DNA from: Eledone cirrhosa
Taxonomy: Eukaryota
Reading direction: 5' to 3'
DNA: 64,000 nucleotides
NCBI GenBank assembly: GCA_964016885.1
Contig: OZ024742.1
Location: 125,860,001-125,924,000 of the forward strand
Shown here piece after piece: positions 15,931 through 23,449 of the stretch. A program made the translations under genes and the position numbers. How positions within the stretch are numbered: position 1 is the first letter of the stretch; every line of letters starts with the position of its first letter. The notes under the pieces are model-generated. The model saw only the letters and a program-made list of their open reading frames with translations. It did not search any database and had not been told where the DNA came from.

Positions 15931-16185
15931 TTCTAATATATCAAGCATTAACCCAATATATATCTTCATTGTATTGTATTCTTCTTCTATGTATATTTTC
16001 TTGTTGACTTTTCTTATATTAGAATGCGTAAATATTTGTTTCATATACTGTCATGTAGCTATCTGATTCAACATTAAATGACCATGTTAGTTAGGAAGGA
16101 AATACATGTTTCCAGTGTGTGTTCGTTCAGTTACGGTAAATAGTCTCTGTTAAGAATGATAGTTAGTAGTTTATATAATATATAG

Positions 16186-16203
16186 ATAGATAGACATACA
16201 GAC

Positions 16204-16260
<57 letters not shown>
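16186..16260. repeat. (GATA)n array at the 3' junction of the Tx1 element
   Basis: Read directly from the sequence; a few GACA variants. Confidence 0.95.
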
Positions 16261-16524
16261 TATTTCTTTTATTTGCCACTAGGGCATCAAAAGTGGGACA
16301 AGTACAAAGGGGGGAGTTTACACAAAAAGGCGTCCTCAATAAGGAGAAGGCAATAACAAAATATAAAAATAAAATAAGATATAACAAAAAATAAAATTTT
16401 TAACAAAATCCTCAATAGAGAGGAGGCGCCTTGGGGGGTCGCACACACCCCCGAAAAAAGTGTGCAACCCTTCTCCTCAGGAGCACAGAGAAGGGGTGCT
16501 CCCTTGGTCTTTTATCTTCCTCAC

Positions 16525-19500
16525 CTATAGTCTGATGTAGAGTGAAGGCCCATTCACACGGGCCATTCTCGCCACTTTCACCCATCTTTCATAGAAACGG
16601 CTGGGGTGCAGCACCTCTCTCTCCATCCTGATCCTTCTTCCGAAATGATATCGGAAGAAACGGACCAGTTGTTGGCCAGAGAGAAAGGTGCCCGACCTCA
16701 GTCCTTTCAGACGCGTCCACCATACAACCTCTTTCGCCATGGCTATTACGCACAGAAACACCGCCTCTGCTTCATCTTTGAAGGGGGGAGGCGGCTTGAT
16801 CATTACAATCGACTCGGTGGTCAACCGGATCGGTCCCACCCTTGACAGCAGTTGTTCGACATAGCCCCACAGATCGGCTACGCCCGAGCAGTGTACTAAT
16901 GCGTGTGCAACGGTTTCCTCGTCGCACACGCATCTGGGACAGATCTTTTTGGCGGGGTCCCTACCCGGGCGCCCGTGTCTGTAGAGCCTTTCTCGAACGG
17001 GTAAAGCCCCTCGGTAGCACTGCCAGGCCAGGGACTTCTGGAAGTTGTCCATAGGTCCCGGGCTGAATGTCCTACCGAACAGGCTGGCCAGTTCGTCCTC
17101 CTCCATGTCTAGGGCTTCTCCGAGGGCGTCGTCGCACCTGCTGCGTAACAGCCCTCTATAGAATGTTGCGGTGGAGTCTCCACTGATAACCGGATCCGCC
17201 TGCCAGAGGGCGGTGAGCGCCTGGGCACACTCAGTGTGCCAGGCGCCCAGTTTTCTCGGTCTTTGCTTGACCCAGGATTGCAGCTCGGTGAGTGAGACGA
17301 GTCTGGGAAAGGTTCGTCTCACAAACGAGGCCCACACCGGTTGTCCGGTGAGGAATACGTAGAGGTGCCGTAGCCTTAATGCGTGTTTACGCATCATTAG
17401 CCACGGCATCCCCAGCCCTCCTTTCGAAGGGTGTTGACAGCAGATGGATCTCCTCACCATAGGAGCCCGCCTCTTCCAAAGGAATTGGAAGAGCGCGCGC
17501 TCCATCTTGGTGAGGGTTTCCCTTGGGCAGGGCACTACGGTCAGGCGGTAGTAGATGACGGACGCTATGTAGGTGTTCGCCACCTCCGCCCGACCTTTCA
17601 GGGATAGTTTGCAACTGGCCCACTTCTGGGTCAGTGCAAACACCCTGTTCGTAACCTCCGCCCAGTTTTTCTCCACCTGGAGGTCCGGTCCGAACCAGAC
17701 CCCGAGCAACTTCACCGGGCCCTCCGTCCAGCGTCCGACGACGCTATCGGAGGGCATCGGTCTGCCCCTCCACGTGCCGAGTTGCAAACCGATCGACTTG
17801 TCCCGGTTCAGCTTAGCCCCTGTGAACTTTTCGTACTCCTCCAGTAAGGTGCCGACCGCCTCGATTTCGGAGGCCGTCGACACCATTACTGTCACGTCAT
17901 CGGCGTAGGCCGACACCGCTTTCCGCAATCCCGGTTCCAAAGGGATGCCCTGCAACAACTCCAACTTCCGCAGTAGTGGCTCGAGAGTCAACACATACAG
18001 AAGGGAGGAGAGAGGGCACCCTTGTCGGATGGACCGCTCGATTTTGAACGGCTCCGAGAGGTAGCCGTTCACCTTGACCCTAGAGCAGATGCGGCTGCTG
18101 TGCATAGCAGTGATCCAGCCCCTGAAAACGGGTCCGAAGCCTGCCGCCGCTAGCACCGCATCCAGGTAACCATGGTCGACCCTATCGAACGCCTTAGATT
18201 GATCCAAGTTGATCAGAGCCCCACCAAAGCCGGGTTCGTTCCCAACCCTCCCTATGATGTATCGCATGAGGTGGAGGTTGTCATGGATGGACCTGGACGG
18301 GATAGCGCATGTCTGCGCATCTCCCACCAGGTTGCCCACGACAAGCGCCAACCTCTTTGCTAGCACCTTGGCCAAAATCTGTAACTCTGTATTTAGCAGT
18401 GTTATGGGCCTGAAGTTACTTATTTCGTCCCCCTTGTTCTCGTCCTTCCTCACTAGCGTGACTACGCCCTTGGTCACAGTACAGGGAATTCTCCCGTTCT
18501 GTTGCCAGTTGCAGTAGACCGCCTCGAGGAGATCGGGGAACAAGTCCGGCATAGCTAGATATAATTCGTAAGGAAGACCATCGAGACCCGGGGATTTGCG
18601 TTTGCCGCTTTGGCTCAGCACGTCCTCTATCTCAGCGGCCGAAATCGGCTCCTCGCAGGACTTCGCCTCCCTGTCCGAGAGGCGCGGCAGGCCGTCGAGG
18701 TATGGACCGAAGTCCACGTTCCCAACCGGCTCCCCGCCCCTCCCGAACAGTCGGGCAAAGTGCCTTTGAAAGGCCTCACACATCTGCTTAGGCTCAAGAA
18801 TCGCCCGTCCATCCAGGTCTCGCAAAGACCGGATGGTGGATTTAGTTCCACTGTTGGCCTCTGTCACGCGGGCCCAGCTAACAGCTTTGGTCCCCTCGTT
18901 CCCTAGAGCACGTATTTTACTTCGGACAACGCAGCCTTCGTGCTTCGCGTCGAAAAACTGGCTCAACGCCGTTCTCGACGCTAGCACTCTGGCCACGTCG
19001 CCGCTTCTAATTGCCTCTTCTACTCTATCTATTAGCTCCCTTTCCTTCCTATTCCTATCCGCAGCTAGAACCTTACTAAATTCTATCGAGACTACTCTAA
19101 TCTCTCTCTTTAGAGATACCCACCACCTGCTGTTGACGATCGCTCCAGTCAACCGTTCCTTAACTAACGTACTAATCCGATTCCTGTAGGCTCTACTTGC
19201 CGACAAGGACAAGTTGAGCTTCCAGTAACCGGGGCCCTGTCTATGAGTTCTGTCAAGGTTGACCATGCAGGTCACTAATTTGTGGTCTGAATAGCCAACA
19301 ATGCGCATTTTTGGACAACTTAAAAAGTCCTTATCCTTAATTCTAACTAAGAACCTATCTAGGTACGACCTAGATGATCCGCTACGATTTGCCCAAGTCC
19401 AGGTTGGCGCAGTCGGAAAATCTAGTCGATATCTATCGGCCAGGTCAAATCGACCGATTAACCCTTTGAGGCTATTACACCCCTCTCTATCGGGGCAGGC

Positions 19501-19962
19501 CCCTACGTAGTCCCAGCGTGCATCTAGGATACCATTCCAGTCCCCCACTAATAGCAAGGAGCGGGACGTCCCTAGAAAAGTCTCCAGACGATGGAAGAAG
19601 TCCGGCCGCATTGACCCGAAAGGGCCGTAGGCGGCTACCAACCTAAACGCTCCGCCTTTACCACTGCCAAGGTCCAGAACCACTAGTCGACCCTCCGGGT
19701 CCAAATGTACCATCTGTGTTGCGAGACCCAGATGTTTTTGCAGCAGAACGACAACTCCACCCCCACCTCCGGGCTGACAGAGAGATGCGTGCATCTCAAA
19801 GTCATCAAAGGTGGGGGCCAGCTGTTGCACGTTGCTGATCCGGGCCTCGCAAATAACCATCACATCTATACGTTGTGACCTGAGGTCATTTAGAAGCATT
19901 GCTTGCTTCCAAGTTGAGCCCAGGCCACGCGCATTTAAACAGCCTACTCTTAGCATAGCCAT
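16525..19962 (-). CDS. Retrotransposon ORF2: AP endonuclease + reverse transcriptase + C-terminal CCHC finger (~1145 aa from first ATG)
   Basis: APE motifs CLNARGL, ICE, AYGP, GDWN, YLDR, SDH. RT motifs KSPGLDGLPYE, FRPITLLN, LDQSKAFDRVDH, RQGCPLS, AYADD. C-terminal CPRC-x8-H-x4-C. The open frame extends to 19986; first ATG is at 19962. Confidence 0.96.
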   Translation of the reverse strand: MAMLRVGCLNARGLGSTWKQAMLLNDLRSQRIDVMVICEARISNVQQLAPTFDDFEMHASLCQPGGGGGVVVLLQKHLGLATQMVHLDPEGRLVVLDLGSGKGGAFRLVAAYGPFGSMRPDFFHRLETFLGTSRSLLLVGDWNGILDARWDYVGACPDREGCNSLKGLIGRFDLADRYRLDFPTAPTWTWANRSGSSRSYLDRFLVRIKDKDFLSCPKMRIVGYSDHKLVTCMVNLDRTHRQGPGYWKLNLSLSASRAYRNRISTLVKERLTGAIVNSRWWVSLKREIRVVSIEFSKVLAADRNRKERELIDRVEEAIRSGDVARVLASRTALSQFFDAKHEGCVVRSKIRALGNEGTKAVSWARVTEANSGTKSTIRSLRDLDGRAILEPKQMCEAFQRHFARLFGRGGEPVGNVDFGPYLDGLPRLSDREAKSCEEPISAAEIEDVLSQSGKRKSPGLDGLPYELYLAMPDLFPDLLEAVYCNWQQNGRIPCTVTKGVVTLVRKDENKGDEISNFRPITLLNTELQILAKVLAKRLALVVGNLVGDAQTCAIPSRSIHDNLHLMRYIIGRVGNEPGFGGALINLDQSKAFDRVDHGYLDAVLAAAGFGPVFRGWITAMHSSRICSRVKVNGYLSEPFKIERSIRQGCPLSSLLYVLTLEPLLRKLELLQGIPLEPGLRKAVSAYADDVTVMVSTASEIEAVGTLLEEYEKFTGAKLNRDKSIGLQLGTWRGRPMPSDSVVGRWTEGPVKLLGVWFGPDLQVEKNWAEVTNRVFALTQKWASCKLSLKGRAEVANTYIASVIYYRLTVVPCPRETLTKMERALFQFLWKRRAPMVRRSICCQHPSKGGLGMPWLMMRKHALRLRHLYVFLTGQPVWASFVRRTFPRLVSLTELQSWVKQRPRKLGAWHTECAQALTALWQADPVISGDSTATFYRGLLRSRCDDALGEALDMEEDELASLFGRTFSPGPMDNFQKSLAWQCYRGALPVRERLYRHGRPGRDPAKKICPRCVCDEETVAHALVHCSGVADLWGYVEQLLSRVGPIRLTTESIVMIKPPPPFKDEAEAVFLCVIAMAKEVVWWTRLKGLRSGTFLSGQQLVRFFRYHFGRRIRMEREVLHPSRFYERWVKVARMARVNGPSLYIRL

Positions 19963-19986
19963 GTTGGTGGTGAAGAGAAAAGGCAC

Positions 19987-21771
19987 TTACCTCTCTGCGT
20001 CCCGGGTATCGGGCTGCACAATTTCCATTAGGGTGGGGGATGGGTTGTTGGGTGGGGTGGTGGTTTGTGGAAGTGTGGGGGCATCAGTGTGTTGTGTGGT
20101 TGGGGAGCTTGGAGTTGTGAGGGTGTTTGGGGAGGGGGTGGGATAGTTTTTTAGGAGGACGCGGTTAATGGGCCCGACGCAGGGGGGACCCACGTCCTCT
20201 TTAAAATTGTTTTTTAAAGTTTTATAGGTGTCCTGTGGGGCCTTAATCATTTTGAGGTGGGGGAAATCCCCTGCCTGGGTGAAGTTAGGCCCTTGTGTTT
20301 TTATTAGATTGTTGTTGTACACAATGTTTAACAGTTTTTTGTTTCTTGTATTTATGTATGTGTATGCATGTTTTTGTTTTTGTGTGGTGTTTTTTGTTTG
20401 CTGTTGTGAGCTCTTTTGTGTTGGTGTCAGTGTTATGTTTTGGGGAGGGTTTTTTTTCATTTGTGTGTCTGAGGTGTGTTTTCTTTTTTTTCTTTTGATT
20501 GTGTGGAAGTGCTCCTCCTCGTCTGACGACGAACTGGGGTCATCTTCTGCGTTGGAGGGGAGGGGTATATTTTCGGGTTGTGTTTGCGGTACGGGTGTTT
20601 TGGAAATTGTTTTTGTTTTTTGGGTGGAGGGGATGGGTTGGACATTGTTTTGTTTTGGTTTGAGCTGTGGTGGTTGTTTTTGTAGTGGTAGTTGTGGTGA
20701 TTGTGTTGGTTGTGCAGTTGTTGGTGGTGTAGGCAGGATTGGGGTTTTCTTATTAAGTTGGGGACAGACAGCCCTCAGGTGACCTCTGGTTCCGCAGAGG
20801 TAACACGAGGGCCGTCTACCCTCAACGGTAATGTTGATGAAGGTTAGATCATCCAGTATGACGCGTTCAGGGATCTGGGCGATCCTTTCGGGCCTCATTT
20901 GAACTACAAGTTCGAGGCTCGTTCCACTGAACGCGTCACCCGATGCCTTTCCCATGGACACCAGCATGTCATCCTCCAGGTCCAGAAAACCTGTCAAAAC
21001 CCACCATATGTCCATAATCGGCAGGATGGTGTGGATTTTTATTTTTTGTGTTCTTCTACCCATGTACGTAGGGTAGAAGGTGTATGCGGTGGATGTGATT
21101 GGTTTGATGGACAGTTTCACTGCTGTGTCCCTGTCCTTCATGAGAATGGATAGACTCCCGTAGAGTCTATCCTTCTGAATGAAGGTGATGTCCTTCATGA
21201 CGTCTTTTAAAACCAGCTCTATCTCGCTCTGTGATGGTTGAGCTGGTTTTTTACTTTTGTTCGAGATTGTCCTAAACATGACCGTGTTTAGGAGTCTCTG
21301 GCTTTTTAGTTCCGGGGGGGAATGGATTGTGAATGAACCATTTTCCCCGTACACTATATATTTTTTCGCATCCGCCAGTAGCTCCTTCGCTTTTGTTATA
21401 TCTACTGGCAGATAGTCGAGGGTTTTCCTTGTCGTCTCGGCGAAGGAGAAATTTTGTTTGTTTGTGTTGTTGTTGTCGTTGGTGGTGTTGTTGTTATCAT
21501 TGTTGTTGTTGTCACCGTTATTGGTCTTGTTGTTGTTATTGTTATTGTTATTGGTGTTGCTTTCGTCCGTCGCATTGTTGTTGTTGCTGTTGCTGCTGGT
21601 TCTTTGGGTTGTTGCCATGGCAACGTCAAGTTGTCGGTTAACAGGTGGAGAGAATTCTTCCTCTGGCTGACCTATCTTCTTGACCTCTGCTACTGTGACA
21701 GTGGCAGGGGGAAGCTGTAAGTTCATCTTCCCCTTTCCTCCTTCGAATTTTGGTGAAGAAGCTTCGGCCAT
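19987..21771 (-). CDS. Retrotransposon ORF1 (gag-like nucleic-acid-binding protein, 594 aa)
   Basis: Starts at ATG. Asn/Thr-rich N-terminal tract, CCHC zinc knuckle CYLCGTRGHLRAVC (20764-20805), Pro/Gln/Thr-rich C-terminal half with a basic KRKKRK motif. Lies immediately upstream of ORF2. Confidence 0.9.
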   Translation of the reverse strand: MAEASSPKFEGGKGKMNLQLPPATVTVAEVKKIGQPEEEFSPPVNRQLDVAMATTQRTSSNSNNNNATDESNTNNNNNNNNKTNNGDNNNNDNNNTTNDNNNTNKQNFSFAETTRKTLDYLPVDITKAKELLADAKKYIVYGENGSFTIHSPPELKSQRLLNTVMFRTISNKSKKPAQPSQSEIELVLKDVMKDITFIQKDRLYGSLSILMKDRDTAVKLSIKPITSTAYTFYPTYMGRRTQKIKIHTILPIMDIWWVLTGFLDLEDDMLVSMGKASGDAFSGTSLELVVQMRPERIAQIPERVILDDLTFINITVEGRRPSCYLCGTRGHLRAVCPQLNKKTPILPTPPTTAQPTQSPQLPLQKQPPQLKPKQNNVQPIPSTQKTKTISKTPVPQTQPENIPLPSNAEDDPSSSSDEEEHFHTIKRKKRKHTSDTQMKKNPPQNITLTPTQKSSQQQTKNTTQKQKHAYTYINTRNKKLLNIVYNNNLIKTQGPNFTQAGDFPHLKMIKAPQDTYKTLKNNFKEDVGPPCVGPINRVLLKNYPTPSPNTLTTPSSPTTQHTDAPTLPQTTTPPNNPSPTLMEIVQPDTRDAER

Positions 21772-21983
21772 TTAAAAAAATATTGACTTTTCAACAAGAA
21801 AAAAACTTTTTTTTTAACTATTTCGCCTAAAGGCGTAGAATATTTTGAGAGACTGACCAGATCAAAGTTTGACCTGGCAGTCCCTCTACAAAATGGTACA
21901 AAAATTAAAGTTATCAGACAAGAATTTCTATAGAAATTTAAACAGAACTTACTCAGCAAGTTATACGCGTGTGTCCATCCCAG

Positions 21984-22031
<48 letters not shown>

Positions 22032-22064
22032 GTTTGTATCTATCTATCTATCTATCTATCTATC
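21984..22064. repeat. (GATA)n array at the 5' junction of the Tx1 element, followed by an inverted (TATC)n array
   Basis: (AGAT)n 21984-22031, then GTTTG, then (TATC)n ~22037-22064. Confidence 0.95.
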
Positions 22065-23449
22065 AATCTATGTGTCTATGTATCTATGCACGTATGTATA
22101 TGATAGTAGATATTCCACCTGTCTGCGTTAACTTTTCATTGTAGATTGTATGCTTGTATATTATTTACAACTTCTACTAAGGGAGTTTTGATTGTTTGTC
22201 CAAACTTACCTTCAAATTCACCTTTTACATACCTCGTATATGGCATACATATTTATTTGCGGAGCGGGGTATCGATTAAATCGACCCCAATCCATTACTG
22301 GTATTTTATTTTATCGACCCCGTAAGGCTGAAAGGCAATGCTAACCTTGGCAGAATTTGAACTCAGGGCACAAAGGGACGTAACTCTATGCCACAAAGTA
22401 TGTTTTCCGACGCTCTACCGATACTCTCATTCTATCGCTCTTACCTACCTCTTATATACAACCTTCTACTAAGGGCTGTGGATTGGCAGTATCGGTAGAG
22501 GGTCGGACGCCATGCTTTGACGTATAGAGTTACGGTCCTTGCCATTCTGAGTTCAAATCCCGCCGAGGTTAACTTTGCCTTTCATCCTTACGGGGTCTAT
22601 AAAATAAAGTACCAGTAATGCACTGGGTAATTGCTGGCCTTGTGCCAAAAGTAGAAACAATTATTTACAACTTCTACATTTCATAATCTTGTCCATGAAT
22701 CTGATTATCGAAGATGTTCAAATTTTTTCTACTTGGTTGTATATAAGAGGTAGGTAAGAGCGATAGAATGGCAGTATCGGTAGAGCGTCGGAAAACATAC
22801 TTTGTGGCATATAGTTACGTCCCTTTGCGTTCTGAGTGCAAATTCTGCCAAGGTTAGCATTGCCTTTCAGCCTTACGGGGTCGATAAAATAAAATACCAG
22901 TAATGGATTGGGTCGATTTAATCGATACCCCGCTCCGCAAATAAATATGTATGCCATATACGAGGTATGTAAAAGGTGAATTTGAAGGTAAGTTTGGACA
23001 AACAATCAAAACTCCACAGATTCCTACCCTATTACTCACAGTATAGACAGAGTTCTCTGGTTTAAATTAAAATAAATATCGCTCGTCAGTTCCACCTATA
23101 TGAAAATAGGTTCCGTGTTTCAGTAATACGTGCTAGAGAACAAGAAAAGAAATCACAGTATAAGTATAGAGTATTTAACTACATCACAATACTGAGTTGA
23201 TAAGGAAAATCTGAACCTGTATCAAATAAGGAAGTAATGGATTGGCTGAAACATTAGATCGCCAGACAAAATGATTTGCGGCATTTAATTACGGTTCTTT
23301 ACATTCTGAGTTCAATTCCCGCCAAGATAAGTTTTGCCTTGTGGGTCGATAAAATAAAGTACCAATCACGTACTGGTGTCGATTTAATTTTTGGCCTAGT
23401 GCCTAAATTAGAAATCATTAAATTAAACAACGAGAAATGATTGCGTTGT

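Follow-up and report, generated by a model that had tools for sequence, protein, structure and literature searches.

A young Tx1-type LINE inserting at TATCTAT motifs, mostly inside (GATA)n arrays, in the genome of Eledone cirrhosa

The window, by which the whole 64-kb stretch analysed is meant (contig C3:125,860,001-125,924,000, in a genome of 3.0 Gb), carries a full-length non-LTR retrotransposon on its minus strand. The element begins at position 21984 (TCTGGGATGG) and ends at about 16260 (AATAAAAGAAATAT), 5,725 bp in all, and it is bordered by two arrays of the same orientation, (TATC)n on the element strand (Table 1). As recognized in the initial annotation, it is a complete element with both reading frames open and the catalytic motifs present, both junctions fall in same-orientation arrays, and AATAAA is followed by the repeat without poly(A); on the element strand, the 3′ end passes directly into (ATCT)n. 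In ORF2, the APE motifs CLNAR, E39, GDWN, YLDR and SDH align to human L1 ORF2p (E=8e-48), the YADD motif is present, and Pfam matches were obtained to Exo_endo_phos (E=2.5e-8), RVT_1 (E=9.7e-26) and, below the curated cut-off, zf-RVT (E=3.9e-5). The CCHC motif of ORF1, CYLCGTRGHLRAVC, is readable in the sequence, and its Pfam zf-CCHC match is weak (E=0.051). The poly-Asn tract of ORF1 occupies window positions 21465-21559, and intact copies have an ORF1 of 591 to 595 aa. A PDB search with the endonuclease (EN) domain alone returned no relevant chain, and a promoter scan of the 5′ end stayed at chance level, with a bacterial model that is inapplicable to such an element. No second match to an L1/Tx1 ORF1 or ORF2 was found elsewhere in the 64-kb window.

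Table 1. The window copy and its flanking arrays, in window positions
Feature	Position	Strand	Remarks
5′ flank, (TATC)12	21984..22031	-	Upstream target and duplication; probably also a few units of carried 5′ leader
5′ UTR, begins TCTGGGATGGACAC	21772..21984	-	First 25 bases have 326 exact genome copies
ORF1, 594 aa	19987..21771	-	Poly-Asn tract; one CCHC knuckle at aa 322-338; Pro/Thr/Lys-rich C-terminal half
ORF2, 1145 aa	16525..19962	-	APE endonuclease at about aa 1-240; reverse transcriptase (YADD); C-terminal CCHC
3′ UTR, ends GGCAAATAAAAGAAA and two subfamily-variable bases (TA in the window copy), without poly(A)	16260..16524	-	
3′ flank, (TATC)n array on the element strand	16178..16260	-	Target DNA including an unresolvable target-site duplication; not an element tail

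Some other repeats lie in the window. A 94-bp (TAGA)n array at 14694-14787 has no adjoining member of the lineage and represents an unoccupied potential target. Right behind the 5′ (AGAT)12 array, a degenerate plus-strand (TATC)n at 22037-22087 makes up an inverted repeat pair with it. A short dispersed repeat, possibly a SINE, has many copies in the window (22373-22553, 22769-22837, 8620-8688, 9496-9564, 53395-53459 and 57852-58148).

The layout of the element is that of the Tx1/L1 group, with two ORFs and an ORF2 composed of an N-terminal APE, a reverse transcriptase (RT) and a C-terminal CCHC. ORF1 of the Tx1 clade carries a CCHC zinc knuckle. Close protein relatives are 38-69% identical and have no family names, and a profile search reached fish proteins named TX1 or YTX2 and the pol-like entries BAC82605, BAC82606 and BAC82609; we take these three entries to be the elements of Kojima and Fujiwara. 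In an RT tree of 35 rows (LG+G4 without a mixture model, and with Tx1L, Keno, Dewa and mammalian L1 absent as named rows), the window lineage falls into a 100/100 clade with these fish proteins and the three BAC entries, and this clade leaves out the fish L1-named cluster P0206 and plant L1. Within it, the window lineage branches separately (100/100) and does not fall in the fish subclade. The tree thus agrees with the earlier assignment to the Tx1 clade. The element is accordingly of Tx1 type and, as far as the rows of the tree go, not an orthologue of Kibi or Koshi.

A 26-base pattern of the 3′ end has 1,959 exact matches in the genome and a 25-base pattern of the 5′ end has 326. Forty scored matches to the 3′ 299 bp, the window copy among them, are all 100% identical, and identity between copies of the family ranges from 99.3 to 100%. 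An open ORF2 of 1145 aa is found in 23 of 30 loci with a full 5′ end and both ORFs are open in 17 of them, a share that is biased upward because similarity to the window copy guided the selection of these loci. In some cases, several copies go back to one event (L187/L188, L199/L200, L354/L355 and L051-L053). The last of these (C3:217.897-217.909 Mb) shows three full-length 5′ ends at a spacing of 5,764 bp with identical junctions, and is probably a head-to-tail array that arose by tandem duplication rather than by three insertions. That the family is young, as proposed earlier, and recently mobile is supported by the identity between copies, the 17 loci with both ORFs open, and an empty allele at L194, the one site tested for polymorphism (described below). 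Relatives also exist beyond the source species, because seven other organisms (runs X5-X11) contain 21-70% of the sampled words of the element. Contigs of four other organisms carry sequence related to the element body.

The 3′ ends of the family show what it prefers. Genome-wide, 1,514 of the 1,959 ends (77%) continue with two bases and then TATCTAT, 187 (9.5%) with two bases and then TATATAT, and 258 with neither. Run starts of (TA)n are about 150 times commoner in the genome (4,092,281 for B(TA)8 versus 27,717 for D(TATC)4), so that the use of TATC over (TA)n corresponds to an enrichment per run of about 1,200-fold, which may be off by a factor of about 2 either way, each pattern catching only some phases of an array. 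Among the 40 scored matches to the 3′ 299 bp, 38 flanks begin with ATCTA. No poly(A) follows the element in the 40 and 30 sampled ends, and the hallmark of L1 proper, a poly(A) tail with a T-rich nick site, was not seen there. Tx1 families are described as target-specific when one repeat type flanks more than 20% of the copies, in the available text of PMC4494074; the family exceeds this at 77% of the 1,959 3′ junctions and at 26 of 27 truncated 5′ junctions.

It is the motif C^TATCTAT that is targeted, mostly inside (TATC)n/(GATA)n arrays, and not the arrays themselves. Unique sites outside arrays are also used (L187 and L194), and insertion can be nested, with copies lying in the flanks of earlier copies. 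In the window background, 33 of 61 TATCTAT 7-mers fall in arrays, so that a pure 7-mer model and a preference for arrays are inseparable. The initial annotation had proposed a (GATA)n-specific family; the repeat is indeed targeted, but the motif is also used in unique DNA and in satellites, and the specificity is leaky, with about 10% of insertions at (TA)n. Landing in (GATA)n likely comes about because the enzyme and the RNA ends read the short TATCTAT motif. A satellite of about 48 bp on contigs C1 and C2 (L085, L198-L201) has been entered several times, and L198 and L201 sit at unit variants that create TATCTAT.

The repeat at the 3′ end could be either target or tail, and the 5′ flanks of truncated copies bear on this. 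With a query that lacked the repeat, 40 copies including that of the window were scored, of which 13 are full length and 27 are 5′-truncated, no two at the same position. At least four TATC-phase 4-mers were found in the 40 bp upstream of 26 of the 27 truncated and 12 of the 13 full-length copies. This level is reached at 3.65% of window positions (binomial p ~1e-36 for the truncated copies, ignoring non-independence of nested sites), and the GATA-orientation control was low. A positional sample was taken from the first 30 matches on contig C1, of which 29 were scored and L127 was dropped for too little flank. Here, the upstream DNA was TATC in 14 of 22 truncated copies, (TA)n in 3 and something else in 5, and TATC in 5 of 7 full-length copies and something else in 2. 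The five truncated copies with neither repeat upstream count against the insertion mechanism favoured below. Two of the sites with other upstream DNA (L114 and L120/L223) lie in satellites, where the duplication is clear and begins with TATATAT.

Duplications were surveyed in 112 distinct copies with both junctions (from L001-L230), deliberately enriched for imperfect and (TA)n sites. The duplication is non-periodic, and therefore informative, in 46 of them; the remaining 66 are mostly periodic and uninformative, and in several older copies no duplication was detectable. At 41 of the 46 informative sites the duplication begins at offset 0 from the element end, with a length of 8-37 bp and a median of 16 bp. 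The first seven duplicated bases are TATCTAT in 36, TATATAT in 4 and TATCTAA in 1 of these 41. The base preceding the duplication is C in 28 of 40, and the element's own end there is A or T in most copies. Microhomology leaves the position of the nick uncertain by at least one base. At L194, an empty allele was recovered from one other sample (runs X1 and X2). In each of the two runs, one contig spans positions 1-303 and then 4275-4914 with no mismatch and 2 small gaps, and it holds the 15-bp duplication TATCTATTTTTGTCT once.

From the TATC upstream of truncated copies, the offset-0 duplications and the L194 empty allele, it is clear that the repeat is target DNA and that nothing is added as a tail. 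The 3′ array of the window copy is accordingly read as target, since no tail was added at the 41 of 46 informative sites of other copies or relative to the empty site. It had been foreseen in the initial annotation that random 5′ flanks would reduce TATC to a mere tail, and that empty alleles should be sought; the truncated copies and L194 answer both in favour of a target. It is extremely improbable that (TATC)n is only a tail made by slippage, as in RTE-type LINEs, with nearly random insertion: AATAAA does run directly into the repeat, full-length copies can carry 5′ TATC units absent from the target, and a few copies (L024, L028) have a 3′ run longer than the 5′ run, but TATC lies upstream of truncated copies, imperfect sites gained no units, and the L194 empty allele already has the whole motif, to which the filled allele adds none. 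An element-encoded repeat tail of the RTE type was ruled out on the offset of 0 at 41 of 46 sites and on the empty allele.

It is also very unlikely that insertion is unspecific and that the pattern arose because copies were selectively retained in microsatellite-rich DNA or amplified together with it. The duplicates of single events listed above are what co-amplification would leave. However, strand, phase and junction base are all fixed, the 27 truncation points are all different, the copies are nearly identical yet polymorphic, and the far commoner (TA)n runs are mostly avoided. This reading was rejected on the fixed phase, the varied truncations, the polymorphism and the avoidance of (TA)n.

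The 5′ end of full-length copies is a different matter. At non-array sites, such copies show extra TATC units between the target and TCTGGG (L080, L199, L200 and L204), and ATC precedes most of the 30 positional 5′ ends. We infer that the full-length RNA starts in the upstream repeat of the donor; part of the 5′ (TATC)n in full-length copies is leader that the element brought along. The extra units in these four copies are the reason why some are assumed in the 5′ flank of the window copy. The 5′ array there, on which the initial annotation had relied, is thus weak evidence because the leader travels with the element, and it is the truncated copies that carry the argument.

Relatives with the same or other targets were found in the same genome, where searching with the C-terminal protein sequence yielded 39,203 candidates at first look. 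Lineage A2 is 96-98% identical in DNA over the last 1.5 kb. Sister lineage B1 has about 86% DNA identity to the window family; its insertion site is CTC^TATATC within a dispersed, C-rich minisatellite (L231-L259, L262-L290 and L308-L315). Its copies have their own truncation points, and L248 shows a duplication of 17 bp; all 5 visible 5′ ends of full-length copies carry the same leader, which derives from the target. There are 521 exact B-type ends, made up of B1 and a variant sited in (TATC)n. The minisatellite of B1 often ends in a shared non-repetitive stretch, and for this reason it may be part of another mobile element. Family C, with about 57% EN identity, continues into (ATT)n at 17 of 17 exact 3′-end matches (L260, L291-L307 and L321-L327), and (ATT)n is also upstream of several truncated or nested copies; its translated copies look decayed. 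Among positions otherwise constant, the EN of B1 differs from that of four TATC-using lineages only by L4I, G65R and C232G, and the core of its beta-hairpin loop is identical to that of the TATC-using copy L319. The other TATC-using lineages have different 5′ halves. Lineages sharing the 3′ half, A2 among them, differ in the 5′ UTR, in ORF1 (about 55% identical) and in the EN (about 88%) (L191, L193, L197, L213, L216, L230; L398-L402), which suggests that 5′ halves have been swapped repeatedly between lineages.

As to how the site is chosen, we favour, with modest confidence, the view that a young Tx1-type LINE inserts tail-less and with a short duplication at C^TATCTAT, its APE likely being the first chooser of the site and nicking the GATA strand. 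ORF2p would nick this strand opposite the start of TATCTAT, and reverse transcription would begin precisely at the 3′ end, aided by a few bases of pairing between RNA and primer. A second nick 9-20 bases further on would produce the duplication. Transcription of full-length RNAs would start within the upstream repeat, giving a leader that would anneal to the target and close the 5′ junction. Every insertion has target repeats on either side of it, so that arrays fill with head-to-tail copies. Choice by the EN is favoured by the C found before the duplication in most sites. It is also favoured by the ends of copies at (TA)n, where those with the most (TA)n-like end, GAAATA-TAT, are not over-represented (hand count: 29 of the first 100 (TA)n sites versus 42 of the first 100 TATC sites, Fisher p=0.076), and by the scatter of (TA)n-site copies over most haplotypes with no lineage of their own. 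By analogy, the precedent and model for this mechanism is Tx1L of Xenopus laevis, a target-specific element whose EN is described as nicking almost only its own target in vitro; Tx1L is stringent, with one site in the Tx1D transposon, whereas the window family uses a short repeat motif with the leak into (TA)n (PMC1950540).

In a second account, the main selector is pairing between RNA and target. The EN would nick loosely at TAT steps, and only nicks that pair with read-through RNA would prime synthesis; transcripts would span the upstream to the downstream repeat, and a lineage would inherit its target from the site of its donor. This is a minority possibility of real weight. The 3′ junctions are precise and tail-less, target-derived 5′ leaders occur both in the (TATC)n lineage (the four copies above) and in B1, and TAT at the junction is common to all targets in the lineage, TATCTAT, TATATC and (ATT)n. 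R1Bm, I and R2Ol are reported to need pairing of mRNA and target or to benefit from it (PMC6007223, in the text available). Three observations speak directly against choice by the EN: B1 uses another target with an EN differing at 3 otherwise constant positions, near-identical ENs thus serving lineages with different targets; its target-derived leader fits RNA-guided choice equally well; and in one haplotype (TA)n is the site of 5 of the 6 copies, as an effect of the donor flank would predict. On the other hand, the C one base upstream of the duplication is outside the region with which read-through RNA pairs in register, 41 of 46 informative 3′ junctions have no donor-derived extra repeats, and (TA)n-site copies belong to most haplotypes and not to a separate lineage.

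A wider version of RNA inheritance is rather unlikely as a whole. In it, a Tx1 radiation would have targets inherited through RNA, a copy landing in a new repeat founding a lineage that homes there with its EN almost unchanged, as for (TATC)n, the CTC-TATATC minisatellite and (ATT)n. The radiation would occupy most (GATA)n arrays and, via duplication and leader transfer, would have helped to build them. That most arrays are occupied is drawn from D(TATC)4 run starts on C1: of the first 40 distinct ones, 30 adjoin a same-orientation lineage member (L358-L397; 26 by script and 4 as 5′ ends of full-length members). This count leans upward, as the pattern is in phase with the 3′ junction and in some cases two runs mark the ends of a single element. 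If targets are inherited through RNA, one could redirect an active APE-type LINE to a new landing site by editing its RNA ends.

LINEs that home to repeats are already known, and the comparisons here follow the available text of the papers cited. Kibi and Koshi are Tx1-clade LINEs of teleost fish specific to (TC)n and (TTC)n (PMC4494074, PMC3812793). Like the window family, they are APE-type non-LTR elements specific to a microsatellite, and the RT of the window family falls in the same large clade as fish proteins named pol-like or TX1. In contrast, their targets are pure C/T tracts, whereas (TATC)n mixes purines and pyrimidines and neither (TC)n nor (TTC)n is the target here. ORF2 of the window copy has 1145 aa versus about 1250-1330 aa in the Kibi/Koshi comparison, and the aligned fish proteins have an EN hairpin loop longer by two residues. 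Among other LINEs, Waldo and Mino belong to R1, and Dong belongs to R4. The microsatellite targets given for such elements are ACAY for Waldo, AC for Mino, TAA for Dong and TG for Togen; these four are not placed in the Tx1 clade, Togen being near NeSL, and GATA/TATC is not among the targets given (PMC3812793, PMC4640811). The (TAA)n of Dong is the same repeat class as the (ATT)n of family C. Crocodilian Tx1 families on (TTCC)n and (TTTC)n share with the window family a tetranucleotide microsatellite target within Tx1, with a different repeat unit, and their relatives switch between microsatellites and other repeats, as B1 does; one of them, Tx1-Mar, targets a Mariner transposon, and its copies are 85-87% identical to the consensus (PMC4494074), versus the near-identical and polymorphic copies found here.

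In cephalopods, L1-Tx1 has been given as expanded in coleoids, without targets in the text available (PMC8967140). Octopus vulgaris is reported to have 80 L1-Tx1 consensus families, 13 of them recently active with 421 near-full-length insertions (PMC13282606), and an orthologue of the window family may be among them. Neither "target" nor "GATA" nor "TATC" occurs in the available text of that paper, and the target sites of these families do not appear in the one supplement searched (PMC13282606). In full-text searches of the literature, no LINE targeting GATA/TATC and no target-specific Tx1 of a cephalopod was found; a catalogue such as Repbase or Dfam may hold an entry. What is new relative to Kibi, Koshi and the crocodilian families is therefore the (TATC)n target and the lineage, both unreported in the literature searched.

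How APE-type LINEs choose microsatellites is described as not well understood in the available part of a 2013 review (PMC3812793). The present family makes this choice testable, since intact copies are numerous, about 2,000 junctions have been scored, one site is polymorphic, and close sister lineages with different targets differ in the EN at only a few constant positions. Its promise as an integration tool is modest, because the target is short, with tens of thousands of sites, and insertion leaks into (TA)n. For the genome itself, (GATA)n loci are often LINE junctions, and this matters for microsatellite markers and for repeat annotation.
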